Positions 9,089-58,845 of a stretch of 64,000 bases of DNA are shown one piece after another (position 1 is the first letter of the stretch; each line of letters opens with the position of its first letter). The notes beneath the pieces were generated by a model. The model was not told where the DNA came from and ran no database searches. It was given only the letters and a program-made list of their open reading frames with translations. The translations under genes and the position numbers were made by a program. Source of the stretch: Eledone cirrhosa (lineage: Eukaryota); contig OZ024743.1 in NCBI GenBank assembly GCA_964016885.1, positions 83,452,001-83,516,000 of the forward strand. The letters run 5' to 3'.

Positions 9089-9179
9089 CGAAGGAAATGT
9101 GGTAAGGAACCAGGTGGACCATAACGCACCAAAGTACTCAATACTTGAGGTAGTAGAGTGGGTAATAGGAACCAGTAAG

Positions 9180-9273
9180 ACCCCGACAGCTGAGCTCAAG
9201 CCGTTTCGACGGCTAATTCTGGACTAAATGAAAATTTATCCTGGTATTTAAATAGCCGATCTTCTCAAGGGGT
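9180..9273 (-). ncRNA. Type I hammerhead ribozyme, U3-A8 core variant (inverted pLTR copy)
   Basis: Reverse complement of 11680-11773. Confidence 0.75.
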
Positions 9274-9945
9274 AATTCCATATATGGTCAAAGTGATTGT
9301 CAAAAATCAGTAGTAATTCTGTGGTTGCAAATTAGTAGGGGAGATGGTGGCTAAACCTGCCAGTAGGAGAAAGAGGGGAGGGGGTGGAGTAGACCCAATC
9401 AAGCATTGGTAGTGCCAGCTACAGCTGGGCATGAGGTCAAAGAAAATACTGGGGAGGGGGAGGGGGAGGAAGTCGGAACGGTAGGTAGAACAATGGGGGG
9501 TAGAAATATATAGGAAAGAAAAAATACTGAGAGTGAAGAAAAGCAAATAAGTGTAAAGAAAAAAGTAAAGTAAATTCTACGACCTAGGTCTCTAGCTATT
9601 GTTAGGCTAGAATAAATAAATAAATAAATAAAGAAAGAAAGAAGTAAAGAAAGAAATAAAGAAATAACGAAATAAGTAAATAACGAAATAAGTAAAAGAA
9701 CTAGGTAGGACGGGATAGGCAAGGACCCTTTAAGAGGTATAAGTACGTAAATGATACGGTGACGGGTCAACAAAAGGAGCCAAAATACTAAAGAGACTAC
9801 CACGAAATAAACAATAAAGGTTTCCATCCCGGGCACAATGCCAGCAACCACCCATGCAGCAAAGTGAACTAGTACGAGATAATAATTCTGAGTCCCGAGA
9901 AAAATATATACTAATGTTAACTCTAAAACATCTAAAACAAGCTAC

Positions 9946-10596
9946 ATGAAACTATTCTTTAGGCTCATTGAAAAACACTTCCCATTACAACACCGCTACC
10001 ACAACATAATTAACAAAAATACCATCAAACTCTCTTACAGCACTACACCAAACTTCGCACAAAACATCGTCTCCTCTAACAACAAAAAACTCAACCCCGA
10101 TGGCAGAAATAACCTAAATAGCAGTGGAGAACCGACCAGGAGGTGTAACTGCCCGGATAGATCCATTTGCCCACTCGACAATAGATGCAGAGACCGTAAT
10201 GTGATCTACCAGTGCAACGTGAGGACGGATACCTCCAACAAAGCCTATATAGGACTTACCGCATGTGACTTCAAGACCCGGCTATACCAACATAGACATA
10301 CCTTCCGAAACCCGGCCCGGCGTCACGCCACTACACTTTCGGGCCACATATGGGACCTCAAGGACAACAACATCACCTATGATCTCACTTGGAGATTACT
10401 GTCCAGAGCCAATTCTTACACGGGAGGACGCCGTCCGTGCAATTTATGCTCGGAGGAAACTTTACAAATGCTGTTTTCGACGGACCAACTCCTAAACAAG
10501 AAAGATGAACTGGTTACTGCATGTAAACATAGATTGCGTAGGACTTACCTCGCCCTCAAACCCCATAATGACCCGGGGGGTAGACTAGGGCTATAA
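9946..10596 (+). CDS. C-terminal part of a PLE polyprotein: linker plus GIY-YIG endonuclease (Naiad-like)
   Basis: NKNTIKLSYS, CNC..CPL...C, VIYQ...AYIGLT..FKTRLYQH, LSGHIWDLK, CNLC, LLNKKDELVTACKH; RT domain lost by 5' truncation. Confidence 0.9.
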   Translation: MKLFFRLIEKHFPLQHRYHNIINKNTIKLSYSTTPNFAQNIVSSNNKKLNPDGRNNLNSSGEPTRRCNCPDRSICPLDNRCRDRNVIYQCNVRTDTSNKAYIGLTACDFKTRLYQHRHTFRNPARRHATTLSGHIWDLKDNNITYDLTWRLLSRANSYTGGRRPCNLCSEETLQMLFSTDQLLNKKDELVTACKHRLRRTYLALKPHNDPGGRLGL

Positions 10597-11679
10597 CACC
10601 CCATTTGCCGATTTTGCAATGGGTAACCCCTGCTTGCCAAGGGAGACGTAAGATCTTCTTTGTATTCTTTTATCGCTTCCTTTATTTCCTTCCCTCCTCT
10701 CTCCTTAGTCCTTCTACCCCAGCTCTTCTCCTTTGTCGGCGTCTTTTCTCGCCCACCCGAGGCTGCCCTTTGGCCCCTTGTAGCCTTAGTACCCCCACCC
10801 CCTCCCCTAGTCTATGATAGATTTGGCGGACTCCGCCTTTTATAGCAGTTGGTTTAGACCCCGGATACTTGTCCCCTTTTTCCGACCGCTCCCACTATTC
10901 TCTGTGCCCTCTATATTTCTTAGTGGCACTTATGCCTTATTTTTTCGTTTCAGTATTTCTTTCTTCGCTTTTCTTTTGGGCGGGGTGGATTCTGAATTTA
11001 TTTTTCCGTATTCTACCTTTACCTCGTTCGAACTTTCATGTAGCTTGTTTTAGATCTTTTAGAGTTAGCATTAGTATATATTTTTCTCGGGACTCAGAAT
11101 TATTATCTCGTACTAGTTCACTTTGCTGCATGGGTGGTTGCTGGCATTGTGCCCGGGATGGAAACCTTTATTGTTTATTTCGTGGTAGTCTCTTTAGTAT
11201 TTTGGCCCCTTTTGTTGACCCGTCACCGTATCATTTACGTACTTATACCTCTTAAAGGGTCCTAGCCTATCCCGTCCTACCTAGTTCTTTTACTTATTTC
11301 GTTATTTACTTATTTCGTTATTTCTTTATTTATTTATTTATTCTAGCCTAACAATAGCTAGAGACCTAGGTCGTAGAATTTACTTTACTTTTTTCTTTAC
11401 ACTTATTTGCTTTTCTTCACTCTCAGTATTTTTTCTTTCCTATATATTTCTACCCCCCATTGTTCTACCTACCGTTCCGACTTCCTCCCCCTCCCCCTCC
11501 CCAGTATTTTCTTTGACCTCATGCCCAGCTGTAGCTGGCACTACCAATGCTTGATTGGGTCTACTCCACCCCCTCCCCTCTTTCTCCTACTGGCAGGTTT
11601 AGCCACCATCTCCCCTACTAATTTGCAACCACAGAATTACTACTGATTTTTGACAATCACTTTGACCATATATGGAATT

Positions 11680-11773
11680 ACCCCTTGAGAAGATCGGCTA
11701 TTTAAATACCAGGATAAATTTTCATTTAGTCCAGAATTAGCCGTCGAAACGGCTTGAGCTCAGCTGTCGGGGT
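11680..11773 (+). ncRNA. Type I hammerhead ribozyme, U3-A8 core variant
   Basis: acccc-UUGAGAA-gatcggcta...tagccgtc-GAAA-cggct(tgagctc)agctg-UC-ggggt; predicted cleavage after GUC at 11768. Confidence 0.75.
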
Positions 11774-11783
11774 CTTACTGGTT

Positions 11784-11859
<76 letters not shown>

Positions 11860-21697: not shown

Positions 21698-24600
21698 TGT
21701 TTAATGGAATGAAGGTTTATATCCTCAAGACTAATGGAAGAAGTCAAATTCCTTAGGCTTAATGCAAGGAAGGGGTCAAAATCCCTATATCTAATGGAAA
21801 GAGTCAATATCCCTATATCTAATGGAAAGAGTCAATAACCCTATGTCTAATGGAAGGAGTCAAAATCCCTATGTTTAATGGAAGGTGTCAAAATCCCTAT
21901 GTTTAATGGAAGGGGTCAAAATCCCCTATTTTTAATAAAAAGAAGGGGTCAAAACCCTTGTTTAATGCAAAGAAGGATAAAACACCCTATGTTTAATGGA
22001 AAGAAGGGGTAAAACACCTTATGTTTAATGGAAAGAAGAGGTAAAACACCTTATGTTTAATGGAAGGAAGGGGTAAAAAAAACCTGTGTTTAATGGAAGG
22101 AAGGGGTAAATCACCCTATGTTTAATGGAAAGAAGAGGTAAAACACCTTATGTTTAATGGAAGGAAGGGGTAAAAAAAGCCTGTGTTTAATGGAAGGAAG
22201 GGGTAAAACACCCTATGTTTAATCGAAAGAAGAGGTAAAACACCCTATGTTTAATGGAAAGAAGGGGTAAAACACCATATGATTAATGGAAAGAAGGGGT
22301 AAAACACCTTATGATTAATGGAAGGAAGGGGTAAAACACCCTATGTTTAATGGAAAGAAGAGGTAAAACACCCTATGTTTAATGGAAAGAAGAGGTAAAA
22401 CACCTTATGTTTAATGGAAAAAAGAGGTAAAACACCTTATGTTTAATGGAAAGAAGAGGTAAAACACCCTATGTTTAATGGAAGAAAGGGGTAAAACACC
22501 CTATGTTTAATGGAAAGAAGAGGTAAAACACCTTATGTTTAATGGAAAGAAGAGGTAAAACACCCTATGTTTAATGGAAAGAAGAGGTAAAATACCTTAT
22601 GTTTAATGGAAAGAAGAGGTAAAACACCTTATGTTTAATGGAAAGAAGAGGTAAAACACCCTATGTTTAATGGAAGGAAGGGGTAAAACACCCTATGTTT
22701 AATGGAAAGAAGAGGTAAAACACCTTATGTTTAATGGAAAGAAGAGGTAAAACACCCTATGTTTAATGGAAAGAAGAGGTAAAATACCTTATGTTTAATG
22801 GAAAGAAGAGGTAAAACACCTTATGTTTAATGGAAAGAAGAGGTAAAACACCCTATGTTTAATGGAAGGAAGGGGTAAAACACCCTATGTTTAATGGAAA
22901 GAAGAGGTAAAATACCTTATGTTTAATGGAAAGAAGAGGTAAAACACCCTATGTTTAATGGAAAGAAGGGGTAAAACACCTTATGATTAATGGAAGGAAG
23001 GGGTAAAACACCCTATGTTTAATGGAAAGAAGAGGTAAAACACCCTATGTTTAATGGAAAGAAGAGGTAAAATACCTTATGTTTAATGGAAAGAAGAGGT
23101 AAAACACCTTATGTTTAATGGAAAGAAGAGGTAAAACACCCTATGTTTAATGGAAAGAAGAGGTAAAATACCTTATGTTTAATGGAAAGAAGGGGTAAAA
23201 CACCCTATGTTTAATGGAAAGAAGAGGTAAAACACCCTATGTTTAATGGAAAGAAGAGGTAAAACACCTTATGTTTAATGGAAAGAAGAGGTAAAACACC
23301 CTATGTTTAATGGAAAGAAGAGGTAAAAAACCCTATGTTTAATGGAAAGAAGAGGTAAAACACCTTATGTTTAATGGAAAGAAGAGGTAAAACACCCTAT
23401 GTTTAATGGAAAGAAGAGGTAAAAAACCCTATGTTTAATGGAAAGAAGAGGTAAAATACCTTATGTTTAATGGAAAGAAGAGGTAAAACACCTTATGTTT
23501 AATGGAAAGAAGAGGTAAAACACCTTATGTTTAATGGAAAGAAGAGGTAAAACACCTTATGTTTAATGGAAAGAAGAGGTAAAACACCCTATGTTTAATG
23601 GAAAGAAGAGGTAAAACACCTTATGTTTAATGGAAAGAAGAGGTAAAACACCTTATGTTTAATGGAAAGAAGAGGTAAAACACCCTATGTTTAATGGAAA
23701 GAAGAGGTAAAATACCTTATGTTTAATGGAAAGAAGAGGTAAAACACCTTATGTTTAATGGAAAGAAGAGGTAAAACACCCTATGTTTAATGGAAAGAAG
23801 AGGTAAAAAACCCTATGTTTAATGGAAAGAAGAGATAAAACACCTTATGTTTAATGGAAAGAAGAGGTAAAACACCCTATGTTTAATGGAAAGAAGAGGT
23901 AAAATACCTTATGTTTAATGGAAAGAAGAGCTAAAACACCCTATGTTTAATGGAAAGAAGAGGTAAAACACCCTATGTTTAATGGAAATAAGGGGTAAAA
24001 CACCATATGTTTAACGGAAAGAAGGGGTAAAACACCCTATGTTTAATGGAAGGAATGGGTAAAACACCCTATGTTTAATGGAAGGAAGGGGTAAAACACC
24101 CTATGTTTAATGGAAAGAAGAGGTAAAATACCTTATGTTTAATGGAAAGAAGAGGTAAAACACCCTATGTTTAATGGAAAGAAGGGGTAAAACACCTTAT
24201 GATTAATGGAAGGAAGGGGTAAAACACCCTATGTTTAATGGAAAGAAGAGGTAAAACACCCTATGTTTAATGGAAAGAAGAGGTAAAACACCCTATGTTT
24301 AATGGAAATAAGGGGTAAAACACCATATGATTAATGGAAAGAAGGGGTAAAATACCTTATGTTTAATGGAAAGAAGAGGTAAAACACCTTATGTTTAATG
24401 GAAGGAAGGGGTAAAACACCCTATGTTTAATGGAAATAAGGGGTAAAACACCATATGATTAATGGAAAGAAGGGGTAAAACACCTTATGTTTAATGGAAG
24501 GAAGGGGTAAAGAAGACTGTGTTTAATGGAAGGAAGGGGTAAAAAAGCCTGTGTTTAATGGAAGAAAGGGGTAAAACACCTTATGTTTAATGGAAGGAAG

Positions 24601-26597
24601 GGGTAAAACACCTTATGTTTAATGGAAGGAAGGGGTAAAACACCCTATGTTTAATGGAAGGAAGGGGTAAAACACCCTATGTTTAATTGAAAGAAGAGGT
24701 AAAACACCTTATGTTTAATGGAAAGAAGAGGTAAAACACCCTATGTTTAATGGAAAGAAGAGGTAAAACACCCTATGTTTAATGGAAATAAGGGGTAAAA
24801 TACCATATGTTTAACGGAAAGAAGGGGTAAAACACCCTTTTTTTAATGGAAGGAAGGGGTAAAACACCCTATGTTTAATGGAAGGAAGGGGTAAAACACC
24901 CTATGTTTAATGGAAAGAAGAGGTAAAACACCTTATGTTTAATGGAAAGAAGAGGTAAAACACCCTATGTTTAATGGAAGGAAGGGGTAAAACACCCTAT
25001 GTTTAATGGAAAGAAGAGGTAAAATACCTTATGTTTAATGGAAAGTAGAGGTAAAACACCCTATGTTTAATGGAAATAAGGGGTAAAATACCATATGTTT
25101 AACGGAAAGAAGGGGTAAAACACCCTTTTTTAATGGAAGGAAGGGGTAAAACACCCTATGTTTAATGGAAGGAAGGGGTAAAACACCCTATGTTTAATGG
25201 AAAGAAGAGGTAAAACACCTTATGTTTAATGGAAAGAAGAGGTAAAACACCCTATGTTTAATGGAAGGAAGGGGTAAAACACCCTATGTTTAATGGAAAG
25301 AAGAGGTAAAATACCTTATGTTTAATGGAAAGTAGAGGTAAAACACCCTATGTTTAATGGAAAGAAGGGGTAAAAAACCATATGATTAATGGAAAGAAGG
25401 GGTAAAACACCTTATGTTTAATGGAAGGAAGGGGTAAAAAAGCCTGTGTTTAATGGAAGGAAGGGGTAAAACACCCTATGTTTAATGGAAAGAAGAGGTA
25501 AAATACCCTATGTTTAATGGAAAGAAGGGGTAAAACACCATATGATTAATGGAAAGAAGGGGTAAAACACCTTATGATTAATGGAAGGAAGGGGTAAAAC
25601 ACCCTATGTTTAATGGAAAGAAGAGGTAAAACACCCTATGTTTAATGGAAAGAAGAGGTAAAACACATTATGTTTAATGGAAGGAAGGGGTAAAAAAACC
25701 CTATGTTTAATGGAAAGAAGAGGTAAAACACCTTATGTTTAATGGAAAGAAGAGGTAAAACACCTATGTTTAATGGAAAGAAGAGGTAAAACACCCTATG
25801 TTTAATGGAAAGAAGAGGTAAAACACCCTATGTTTAATGGAAATAAGGGGTAAAACACCATATGTTTAACGGAAAGAAGGGGTAAAACACCCTATGTTTA
25901 ATGGAAAGAAGAGGTAAAACACCTTATGTTTAATGGAAAGAAGAGGTAAAACACCCTATGTTTAATGGAAGGAAGGGGTAAAACACCCTATGTTTAATGG
26001 AAAGAAGAGGTAAAACACCCTATGTTTAATGGAAGGAAGGGGTAAAACACCCTATGTTTAATGGAAAGAAGAGGTAAAACACCCTATGTTTAATGGAAAT
26101 AAGGGGTAAAACACCATATGTTTAACGGAAAGAAGAGGTAAAACACCCTATGTTTAACGGAAAGAAGGGGTAAAACACCTTATGTTTAATGGAAAGAAGA
26201 GGTAAAATACCTTATGTTTAATGGAAAGAAGAGGTAAAACACCCTATGTTTAATGGAAGGAAGGGGTAAAACACCCTATGTTTCATGGAAATAAAGGGTA
26301 AAACACCATATGTTTAATGGAAAGAAACGGTAAAACACCCTATGTTTAATGGAAGGAAGGGGTAAAACACCCTATGTTTAATGGAAGGAAGGGGTAAAAC
26401 ACCTTATGTTTAATGGAAGGAAGGGGTAAAACACCCTATGTTTAATGGAAGGAAGGGGTAAAACACCCCATGTTTAATGGAAAGAAGGGGTAAAACACCC
26501 TATGTTTAATGGAAGGAAGGGGTAAAACACCCTATGTTTAATGGAAAGAAGGGGTAAAACAATCTATGTTATGGAAAGAAGGGATCAAAATCCCTAT
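21698..26597. repeat. 32-bp satellite array (gtttaatggaaagaagaggtaaaacaccctat), about 150 units
   Basis: Exact 32-nt period in the core; shorter and degenerate units at both edges. Confidence 0.97.
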
Positions 26598-29334: not shown

Positions 29335-29871
29335 ATAGTTATTTAATGTTAATACACTATTGTTGGTGACATTGGTGACATTCCCCACACGTTTGTATTC
29401 AGGTGGCAACAGCTGTGATTGTGATTGTCAGCAATTATATAATATTGCATTATATATATATATATATATTTAAAAGAATAGAGGTGTAACACACGAGTTG
29501 TGATATATTGGTAAAAGGAAAAAAAAATGCTGAATAATTGTTCCCAGTGAAAAATAGTTTAATTAGGAATAAGTAAAAATTAGTAATAAGTATTGGTTAG
29601 TATTCAGTTTTAGTTTTAAGCTTTTACCGGTTGCGCATTTCTAATGCTTTTCAAAAATAATTTTGAATGGACTCTCACACACACCTTGGTGTTATGACGG
29701 TGTGTGTGAGTGTCACTCAAAATTATTTTTGAAAAGCATTAGAAATGTGCAACCGGTAAAATCTTAAAACTAAAACTGAATACTAACCAATACTTATTAC
29801 TAATTTTTGCTTATTCCTAATTAAACTATTTTTCACTGGGAACAATTTGTCAGCATTTTCTTTTCCTTTTA

Positions 29872-29927
<56 letters not shown>

Positions 29928-30043: not shown

Positions 30044-30074
<31 letters not shown>

Positions 30075-30079
<5 letters not shown>

Positions 30080-30377
30080 AAAAAGAGATGAAATCGAAAA
30101 TGCAACTGGAGTCTTATTTAAAAAAAAAATATATATATTTATTTGGTTCCTGTGGTTTTTCTCACATCTCAGATGTAAGAAAAACCACAGACCCTCCATC
30201 TCAACTTACCTTTTGAAAAGCAGAAGAACTGCGAAACCGGTAAAGGAACTAAATAAATATATATATTTAAAAAAAAAAAAAAACTCCAGTTGCATTTTTG
30301 ATTTCATCTTTTTTTCTTTATACTTTCACTCGTGTAGGACACCTCGGTTATTTTTCATTTTGTAAAAAAAACCTCAC

Positions 30378-30384
<7 letters not shown>
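30075..30384 (+). mobile_element. Fold-back element, same family as 50564-50929, with a deleted left arm
   Basis: Same apex and right-hand tail as 50564-50929; inserted in (TA)n. Confidence 0.8.
30209..30246 (+). ncRNA. 38-nt minimal type I hammerhead, U3-A8 core
   Basis: cctt-UUGAAAA-gcag(aagaa)ctgc-GAAA-ccgg-UA-aagg. Confidence 0.75.
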
Positions 30385-30476
<92 letters not shown>

Positions 30477-34129: not shown

Positions 34130-36500
<2,371 letters not shown>

Positions 36501-38339: not shown

Positions 38340-38997
38340 ATCTTTTCCTATTACCCACTCTACTACCCGAAGTAACGAGTACTCTGGTGGGTTATGGTCC
38401 ACCTGGTTTTTTACGACACCCTATCTGATATATATATATAACGAAGGAGAATTGGTAAAGTAGTCAATACTTAGGGTAGTAGAGTGGGTAATAGGAAAAG
38501 GTATGACCCCGACGTCAGAGCTCAAGACGTTTCGACGGCTATTTCTGGACTAAATTAGAATTTTTAGCCTGGTAAATAAATAGCCGAACTTATCAAAGGA
38601 AGATTGTAGATGTCAAGAGGATTGGTCAAAATTTGTTGTAAACACAAGTAAGTCTATCATGGCATTTGGTGGTAGGTAGGGGTGGCTGAACTTGCCTATA
38701 GAACAATGAGGGAGTGAGTTGAGCCGGTCAAGCGTTGAAAGTGATATCTATGCAGCAGATTCTAAGGATAGTGTATGAAAAGTCGAAGAATTATTCTGAA
38801 GAAAAATGGAGGAGGGAGGGTATAGAATAGGTAAATCAGATGAGAGTAAGAGTATTCCACTATTATATTTGGTAAGGTGAGAGAAGCTCTAAGCACACTA
38901 AAATCCTCAGCTCATAGAAAGTTTAAAACAGACGAAAGTTTTTGTTGTTGAGGACAGTTCAGGTATCGGAGTATTAATGGATTTAAGTTAACCATGG

Positions 38998-39722: not shown

Positions 39723-39815
39723 CTGTATAAATAATACAGAGTGAGTAACAGTGACCGCACCAACATGTAAACATGCCAGAAAATACGAATTCCCTGAATT
39801 GAAAAAATGATAAAC

Positions 39816-39860
39816 ATCTTTAATCGATTTTCGAAGTCTATTGAACCCTCATCAGAAGAC
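39816..39860 (-). ncRNA. Minimal type I hammerhead inside a short TA-flanked element (39720-39898)
   Basis: gtctt-CUGAUGA-gggttc(aata)gacttc-GAAA-atcgat-UA-aagat. Confidence 0.7.
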
Positions 39861-39924
39861 GTGGATATCTTCCAATCAACCACAAGGCATTAGATGGGTA
39901 TATATATATATATATATATGAATC

Positions 39925-50561: not shown

Positions 50562-50563
50562 GT

Positions 50564-50929
50564 ATAAAGAAAAAGAGATGAAATCGAAAATGCAACTGGA
50601 GTCTTATTTTTTTAAAAAATATATATATTTATTTGGTTCCTTTACCGGTTTCGCAGTTCTTCTGCTTTTCAAAAGGTGAGTTGAGATGGAGGGTCTGTGG
50701 TTTTTCTCACATCTGAGATGTGAGAAAAACCACAGACCCTCCATCTCAACTCACCTTTTGAAAAGCAGAAGAACTGCGAAACCGGTAAAGGAACCAAATA
50801 AATATATATATTTTTAAAAAAAATAAGACTCCAGTTGCATTTTCGATTTCATCTCTTTTTCTTTATACTTTCACTCGTGTAGGACACCTCGGTTATTTTT
50901 CATTTTGTAAAAAAAACCTCACTTTCTAA
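50564..50929 (+). mobile_element. Near-perfect ~300-bp fold-back element with two U3A8 hammerheads and a 60-nt tail
   Basis: Arms 50564-50714 / 50716-50866; apex 50715; hammerheads at 50639-50676 (-) and 50754-50791 (+). Confidence 0.85.
50754..50791 (+). ncRNA. 38-nt minimal type I hammerhead, U3-A8 core
   Basis: cctt-UUGAAAA-gcag(aagaa)ctgc-GAAA-ccgg-UA-aagg. Confidence 0.75.
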
Positions 50930-50937
50930 TATATATG

Positions 50938-51039
<102 letters not shown>

Positions 51040-51115
51040 CATATATATATATATACATATATATATACATATATATATAAGTATTAATAAAATAGATGTT
51101 CTTTTGATCAATTAC

Positions 51116-51168
51116 ATTTTATTATACATATTTCGGATGTACAACAGTACCTCCTCATCAGACAAAAT
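51116..51168 (-). ncRNA. Type I hammerhead ribozyme
   Basis: attttgt-CUGAUGA-ggaggtac(tgtt)gtacatcc-GAAA-tatgta-UA-ataaaat. Confidence 0.75.
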
Positions 51169-51683
51169 ATAATGATACATGACATACCCTGAGATGTTAA
51201 ATGGTTAAGATTTAATCAAGGTAGTGATTACCCGATAGAAAATTTTGCTTATATAATATCTGTGTGAGAGTGCGAAAACGTAATGAATTCATTAGAGAAT
51301 GTGTGAATAAGAAAAAACGTTGCATACTTAAAGTGTTCTAAAATTTAAAATTGTATGATACTATAATATATCTAGGGAGACGTCTCATGAATCATAACAG
51401 CCAGTGATAGCCACTGGAAAAAGATTTATAAGGAAAAAGATAAAGTGTGTGTTGTGAGGGGGGGGGGGGTCGAAAGTTAAACGGTTCGAATTTGGAAATA
51501 TTTAATTTATAATATTAATGTGAAGACTCCAGATTTCAGGATTATTTGCTATTTATTTATATTATTTATATAAATTCGATAAGTGTGTTATCATTTCTAA
51601 ACTTCTGAATTGTGAGAATAACATTATAAAGGATTTAGCTGGCGCATAAAGAATGAAATATTATACGGTTGATTAATTACCTA

Positions 51684-58502: not shown

Positions 58503-58845
58503 TAGGAAAATAGGAAAAGAGCCAGGACCCCGACGGCTGAGCTCCGGCCGTTTCGACAGCTAGATCCGAAGTAAGCCACGAGTATTAGAACGGCGGGAAT
58601 CTAGCTCAACTTATCAAGGGGTACAGTCCATATATGAGCATGCAGTGAAAGCCAAAAAAGCAAAAATATCTAAGCAAAAAATGTGTTTACGCATGGTGGG
58701 TTAAAAATCTAATAAGAAACAGGACCTTGGTAGTAGTGCCGGGATTTAAGTGTTGGTATGGGTCGAAGAGGGCTCCACTATGGAAGAACAAAGAGGGTGT
58801 GGTAAGATACCAGGTGGATCATAACGCACCAGAGTACTCAATACA
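58503..58845 (-). mobile_element. Penelope pLTR fragment (second U3A8 subfamily) with the tail sequence placed upstream
   Basis: Hammerhead at 58527-58622; tail at 58787-58845 in the same orientation. Confidence 0.75.
58527..58622 (-). ncRNA. Type I hammerhead, U3-A8 core
   Basis: acccc-UUGAUAA-gttgagctagat...atctagctgtc-GAAA-cggc(cggagctca)gccg-UC-ggggt. Confidence 0.75.

Follow-up and report, generated by a model that had tools for sequence, protein, structure and literature searches.

A palindrome with paired U3-A8 hammerhead motifs in Eledone cirrhosa as a head-to-head insertion of a young Neptune-type PLE

How did a near-perfect palindrome come to carry the same U3-A8 hammerhead motif on both of its strands, and does its symmetry serve the ribozyme? 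The locus lies at 50562-50935 of a 64,000-nt stretch of Eledone cirrhosa DNA (contig OZ024743.1), the whole of which is called the window here. An earlier note, made from the letters of the window alone, had described a near-perfect palindrome of about 300 bp, and the structure bears this out, with arms of 153 nt each (50562-50714 and 50716-50868) that carry one mismatch and meet at one unpaired centre base (307 bp). The motif, cctt-TTGAAAA-gcag(aagaa)ctgc-GAAA-ccgg-TA-aagg, was found at all three places reported: at 50754-50791 on the plus strand, as a mirror copy within the inverted arm at 50639-50676 on the minus strand, and again at 30209-30246 (+). Cleavage of the plus-strand copy, a type I motif with a 4-bp stem I, a 4-bp stem II and an ACCGGU palindrome, is predicted after A17 at 50787, and relative to this site the centre of the palindrome is the junction -72/-73. 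The inverted arm (50562-50715, minus strand) runs from a short fixed end, about +76 to +81 past the predicted cut site, back to -73; the sense arm (50716-50935, plus strand) runs from -72 to a long fixed end at about +143 to +148, its exact base hidden in TATATA, and so extends about 63 nt beyond the palindrome, to 50929-50935, where (TA)n begins. TA repeats flank the insertion on both sides. As the two motifs lie on opposite strands, a single transcript never contains both, and a transcript of the whole palindrome is predicted to fold as one long hairpin with the motif buried in a 153-bp stem. The role implied for the palindrome in the earlier note finds no support. The palindrome is not a ribozyme device; it was left by the integration of a Penelope-like element (PLE), a young one of Neptune type that inserted in (TA)n, truncated at its 5' end and with its two arms head to head.

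The motif fits the type I hammerhead core at positions 3-9, G12-A14, A15.1-U16.1, H17 and the 3-8 pair, with U3-A8 replacing C3-G8. Its stem III, described previously as the 4-nt palindrome CCGG, is palindromic as claimed but really comprises the 6-mer ACCGGU once A15.1-U16.1 is included, with one pair in the monomer and six in the modelled dimer; the computed folds gave +0.7 kcal/mol for the monomer and -18.9 kcal/mol for a double hammerhead through ACCGGU. Across 12 variants, hand-picked and related so that the shuffle p is not a true probability, stem II pairs 10.2-10.4 were Watson-Crick in 36 of 36 cases compared with 20.5 after shuffling, and stem I in 38 of 48 compared with 29.5. The stems covary in these variants, so that pairing is conserved across them, one of the two checks on which the earlier note had made its reading depend. 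Core and stems were kept in 11 of the 12, with N7 and N17 varying, a sign that some function of the motif has been, and still is, under selection. In other records, elements with 40-49% identity have C3-G8 hammerheads in the corresponding position, with the palindromes CCGG, CGCG, CATG, ACGT and TATA. On these comparisons the motif is a hammerhead by descent, derived from ordinary C3-G8 PLE hammerheads, and its assignment to the PLE type with a short palindromic helix III stands; it occupies the position of its C3-G8 relatives in the pseudo-LTRs of an RT/GIY-YIG element.

Natural U3-A8 hammerhead cores have been reported, and reported as active (Perreault 2011, PMC3088659), and Cervera and De la Pena (2014, PMC4209133) described them in Schistosoma PLEs such as Schistosoma mansoni Cercyon, together with opposite-strand hammerhead pairs 100-700 bp apart. 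The present motif resembles the PLE hammerheads of PMC4209133 in its short stem I, G10.1-C11.1, dimer-needing palindromic stem III, pseudo-LTR location, opposite-strand pairing and U3-A8 covariation. It differs from them in having no extra nucleotide between 9 and 10.1, a 4-bp stem II, a 4-nt loop palindrome and a sister family with C13, and has A17 beside U3 where two Schistosoma U3-A8 rows listed there have G17 and U17.

The exact 30-nt core is present in 11,539 copies in the 3.0-Gb host genome and in none of a reversed control, so the motif is not a chance occurrence; in the same pattern search the copies often formed minus/plus pairs of variable spacing. The linked autonomous ORF that the earlier note proposed to look for was found. 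At one locus (L038) the end of a GIY-YIG domain is linked to the motif about 1 kb downstream, and a search with this domain end returned many 775-codon frames in the host genome; the motif lies downstream at 28 of 30 endonuclease loci. No RNA record was listed for the endonuclease stretch, a result that is silent on expression. The full units, which we call family 1, measure about 4.7 kb and have the order hammerhead, ORF1 (409 codons, stop to stop), -1 slippery site, ORF2 (RT/GIY-YIG), 3' UTR, hammerhead, and three tandems (L072, L075, L077) have 4.68-4.71 kb between motifs. Fifteen loci were fetched for their open 775-codon frame, and all 15 of their ORF2 copies share 99.1-99.9% identity, which marks the family as young. 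A non-LTR retrozyme, a short non-coding tandem unit without its own RT, is ruled out since these units carry an RT; animal non-LTR retrozymes (PMC7229834; bioRxiv 10.64898/2026.07.22.740005) share the dimer-type hammerhead and the link to PLE machinery, whereas family 1 is autonomous and protein-coding. Two subfamilies are distinguished by the outer stem I, ACCTT giving four pairs and TACTT three, the latter accounting for about 4 in 10 of the 100 matches listed, counted by eye. L069 holds a pair of neighbouring 3.9-kb insertions with the same inversion junction, produced either by duplication on the spot or by an error of assembly.

ORF2 carries an RT (Pfam RVT_1 at E 1.3e-6, 0.9 bit under the cut-off), a CX4CXXC linker, DKG, and a GIY-YIG domain with CCHH (above the cut-off) at residues 682-772 of 775, that is, C-terminally. 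RT and GIY-YIG, together with tandem pseudo-LTRs, 5' truncation, an inverted copy and a tail at one end, make family 1 an EN+ PLE. Compared by eye with the rows of Craig et al. (2021) Fig. S2, the C-terminal endonuclease, CCHH, CX2-5CxxC linker and DKG are those of Neptune, and the linker spacing fits the Neptune rows and not the Nematis rows; the Hydra features (CxCX5C linker, no CCHH, DKT, RWK motif) are absent from ORF2, as is the N-terminal endonuclease of Naiad. The Neptune-type assignment rests on these motifs, the trees described below containing no named Neptune references. Family 1 shares with the Neptune EN+ PLEs of Craig et al. (2021, PMC8557442) not only this endonuclease, linker and DKG but also pseudo-LTRs, 5' truncation, an inverted 5' copy, an optional tail and an optional frameshifted ORF1, and departs from them in a tail of about 63 nt rather than 30-40 and in the U3-A8 core. 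A search with its short motifs gave no match in the supplement of PMC8557442, which lists Naiad, Chlamys and Hydra sequences. Family 1 is a new family of a known element type; the motif itself is no surprise, since elements of this type, their inverted arrangement and the U3-A8 core variant have all been published.

Where ORF1 and ORF2 overlap, families 1, 2 and 4 (families 2-4 being sister families) and three outside relatives share the heptamer U UUU UUA, set in the -1 frame; among further outside relatives, two have U UUU UUG and one has neither. This conserved U UUU UUA is likely a programmed -1 frameshift site through which ORF2 would be reached. The region corresponds to positions 4592-4682 of L075, with relatives in L116, L259, L157, L161 and L162, and a hairpin is predicted behind it in most.

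Two further insertions of this group lie in the window. One, at 30073-30390, is a second family 1 insertion with a short-end inverted arm lacking the motif, followed by a sense arm with the 30209-30246 motif and the long end. The other, at 29466-29882 (outer limits by eye), is a head-to-head insertion of the sister Neptune family 2 (U3-A8, C13), with motifs at 29621-29658 (-) and 29725-29762 (+). The compensatory stem II ascribed to both of these motifs in the earlier note holds for the first (gcat/atgc), but the second reads gcat/atgt, with one G-U pair; the GCAA reported in place of GAAA is present in both and is not stray damage but the master state of family 2. GCAA instead of GAAA also appears in one of the two pseudo-LTR copies (position 169 of L158) of a C3-G8 relative in an unrelated host. 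Family 2 as a whole has A13 in only 25 of 4,254 motifs and C13 in 99 of the 100 motifs listed, a fixed A13C by which it fails the type I hammerhead core at position 13. Changes at A13 are harmful to hammerheads. An alternative register using the loop GAAA was tried by eye and fails, with no U16.1 and a 6-nt stem II. Family 2 carries an ORF1 and an ORF2 of its own, at about 54% identity; the copies seen are frameshifted.

Copies end at two fixed points, each an internal TATA tetramer, about +76-81 and +142-148 from the predicted cut site, both between the motif and the ORF1 ATG (+170), with one end type per arm. A long end was combined with a short end in 23 of the 25 classifiable head-to-head pairs of family 1 (34 found, p 2e-5) and in 15 of the 17 classifiable pairs of family 2 (20 found, p 0.002). 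In the contigs of four sequencing runs, loose TA ends at both fixed points, and loose ends at -69/-72, were seen in one independent run; contigs cannot reveal transcript starts. The stretch between the two fixed ends, at 50869-50929 (+) here and present in one arm only, is identified by these end positions and loose ends as the PLE tail, and inverted 5'-truncated copies with a one-sided tail are standard PLE features. A near-perfect 307-bp palindrome in TA repeats might suggest a DNA transposon, either a MITE or a fold-back element, that duplicates a TA target, the hammerhead being a chance A-rich match; stem I is mostly A-U in the sister families, and no hammerhead was among the best 150 of 183 Rfam matches listed, microRNA-hairpin and similar sub-threshold matches appearing instead. 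Equal terminal inverted repeats and a uniform length were not found, however: the outer ends of the arms are unequal and the junctions vary between copies. This very improbable reading is refuted by the identity of the arms with the ends of an RT/GIY-YIG element and by the canonical hammerheads at the same place in relatives.

The inner ends of the copies are also clustered. Sixteen of the first 30 family 1 copies stop 62-73 nt upstream of the cut site, where the palindrome centre falls, as do 10 of 30 family 2 copies at 59-76 nt; several insertions contribute both of their arms to the 30 family 1 copies, and the stops are spread over 12 nt instead of forming a sharp peak. A 30-mer across the -72 region has 2,939 genome copies compared with 11,539 for the core, a count lowered by subfamily differences as well as by truncation. 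Full copies have CATATAAA at -104 and CCAGAT with its A at -72, which resemble a TATA box and an initiator. We infer from this arrangement that a candidate promoter in the pseudo-LTR directs the element mRNA to start at -72, on the A of CCAGAT; in full copies this A follows TATAAAA at a distance of 30 nt. The putative start and a predicted 5' leader hairpin, which has a counterpart in family 2, occupy 50716-50746 (+). Family 1 shows the TATA/initiator pattern clearly and family 2 in part, whereas families 3 and 4 lack it. Farther upstream in the pseudo-LTR (L075 3140-3240; L116 upstream of the motif) there are GGCGCGAAA, CCAAT and CACGTG words, which to our eye resemble E2F, NF-Y and E-box sites and would presumably suit a cell-cycle promoter.

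Because the hotspot is broad, both arms of some insertions are among the 30 copies, and the predicted hairpin begins at the same place in two families, RT stalling or fold-back could also explain the inner ends. If one cDNA had snapped back at the leader hairpin, the palindrome would derive from that cDNA and not from two primed ones; in favor of this, 10 of 24 pairs have arms that differ in length by no more than 5 nt, and the hairpin lies at the junction. Fold-back needs the long-end arm to be the longer, however, whereas among the 14 unequal pairs there are 6 whose short-end arm extends further upstream, which makes this origin quite improbable; PAc, moreover, extends both strands in vitro (PMC11167929).

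We favor, with a probability of about 70%, the reading that the palindrome consists of head-to-head pseudo-LTR stubs of a young autonomous Neptune-type PLE in a TA repeat, that both cut strands likely primed copies on uncut RNA, that these cDNAs likely ran off its start, and that the inherited hammerhead is predicted to be weak and dimer-only. A TATA/initiator-like promoter in the pseudo-LTR would start the mRNA 72 nt upstream of the cut site, leaving the hammerhead in the 5' UTR. At the two internal TATA tetramers the RT would begin its copies, using the nicked (TA)n of either strand as primer; from the 5' pseudo-LTR both cDNAs would fall off after about 150 and 220 nt and be joined tip to tip to give the palindrome, while long copies would need a read-through tandem (or circular) RNA. 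PAc, the Anolis Poseidon studied by Frangieh et al. (2024, PMC11167929), offers a close parallel in vitro: its RT starts at two internal sites that bound the tail downstream of the hammerhead, and both strands are extended with uncut RNA as the template. Unlike PAc, family 1 has two ORFs, and its copies end before the ORF1 ATG is reached. Both of these ends match the TA target, whereas the sites at which PAc starts have no such homology, which counts against the priming model.

Whether the hammerhead has to cut for the element to move is a separate matter. Copies starting at the cut site numbered 57 compared with 28 at the single control (+4), in a test whose patterns missed junctions that share letters with the element; with starts at twice the control, a little cleavage is possible. 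The lowest-energy dimer fold pairs U3 with A17, a predicted pair resembling the C3-G17 pair proposed as an inhibitory trap in PMC3884650, and A17 is present in 7 of the 12 hand-picked variants. The general statement that minimal PLE hammerheads cleave mainly as dimers holds for one tested Schistosoma motif, which gave no monomer cleavage, but at low dimer activity only (PMC4209133). The family 1 hammerhead is predicted to cut only weakly and only as a dimer. Given the few cut-site starts and the fixed A13C of family 2, cleavage looks weak or dispensable for insertion, and the need for cutting is probably little.

An active and necessary hammerhead would work otherwise: motifs paired through ACCGGU in a tandem transcript, or in two RNAs, would cut out 4.7-kb monomers that are circularised, the RT would read through the religated junction, and family 2 would tolerate C13 or move in trans. 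The dimer fold is favorable to this, core and stems are conserved with covariation, the U3-A8 cores of PMC3088659 were reported active, a circle model was proposed in PMC4209133, and religation would likewise leave few copies beginning at the cut site. A circle has no 5' end at -72, however, yet more than half of the sampled copies stop there; family 2, with its own ORFs, amplified with C13; the best dimer forms the U3-A17 pair; and PAc hammerhead core mutants insert normally in vitro (PMC11167929). We consider this alternative unlikely. In the preferred reading, cutting would be slow or late and unneeded for insertion. A fuller version of that reading, slightly less likely than not, is that the thousands of palindromic stubs are a fossil record of PLE integration. 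Both strands of a cut TA repeat would pair with the two TATA sites inside the 5' leader of an mRNA that had started at the promoter and had not been cut, and the cDNAs would run off the capped end and be joined head to head; the hammerhead of this lineage would have been tuned down (U3-A8, the U3-A17 trap, A13C in the sister family) without loss of mobility, and PLE hammerheads would be passengers or late regulators and not the processing enzyme. A literature search that covered few subscription papers returned none on family 1, on A13C in hammerheads, of PLEs or otherwise, or on stubs that originate by run-off. The origin of PLE inverted insertions and whether PLE hammerheads must cut are open questions according to PMC8557442 and PMC11167929. 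Family 1 has value here as a test system that makes sharp predictions: it is very young, its ORFs are intact, both of its ends are fixed, a transcript start can be proposed, and the core of a sister family has changed.

To place the U3-A8 core we used RT trees whose core labels come from our own motif scan. In a careful 21-row tree, built from labelled rows only and without ten of these, families 1-4 group together with full support and lie among C3-G8 relatives, and U3-A8 needs four changes in all 200 bootstrap trees; a 51-row quick-search tree, from which two rows were dropped for short cover, agrees. Holding all seven U3-A8 rows as one clade was rejected (p-AU 1.85e-31), and joining only the nearest outside U3-A8 row to families 1-4 was weakly rejected (0.039). 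A looser pattern found 245 further U3-A8 motifs in the host genome, some tied to sister RTs 49-58% identical; a C3-G8 pattern with ACCGGT gave 5 matches there compared with 143 in the reversed control, no canonical cousin being found. The earlier note had left open an independent or an ancient U3-A8 lineage. Since the tree requires four changes and the other U3-A8 family of the window is Hydra-type, the first option stands and the second does not: the U3-A8 of families 1-4 goes back to a single change in their common ancestor, and its other occurrences have separate origins. That other family, said in the note to be unrelated, is so, with a Hydra-type RT about 21% identical. Its motif follows an ORF with RWR, DKT and CxCX5C and no CCHH in 10 of 12 loci, features that place it in the Hydra clade. 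PMC8557442 lists Hydra-1_Obim with a C3 core, and its supplement gave no match to short motifs from the Hydra-type family in the window. The Hydra-type copy at 9165-11788 (loci L291-L302) is an inverted insertion of a young PLE with a long-stem-II U3-A8 hammerhead, its motifs at 9198-9268 and 11685-11755; related motifs lie at 38526-38596 and 58539-58617.

Searches restricted to CUGANGA miss whole PLE families. Six C3-G8 type I motifs with a longer stem I and a 6-nt palindromic stem III are also present in the window, at 34319-34389, 34516-34586, 34851-34921, 36030-36100, 39814-39862 and 51111-51173, and probably belong to other PLE or retrozyme families. Animal PLE sequences occur inside several bacterial MAG records (L012, L156-L252; MAG L236-L252) and are likely host contamination. 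A satellite of about 140 copies of a 32-nt unit occupies about 22000-26500 of the window.
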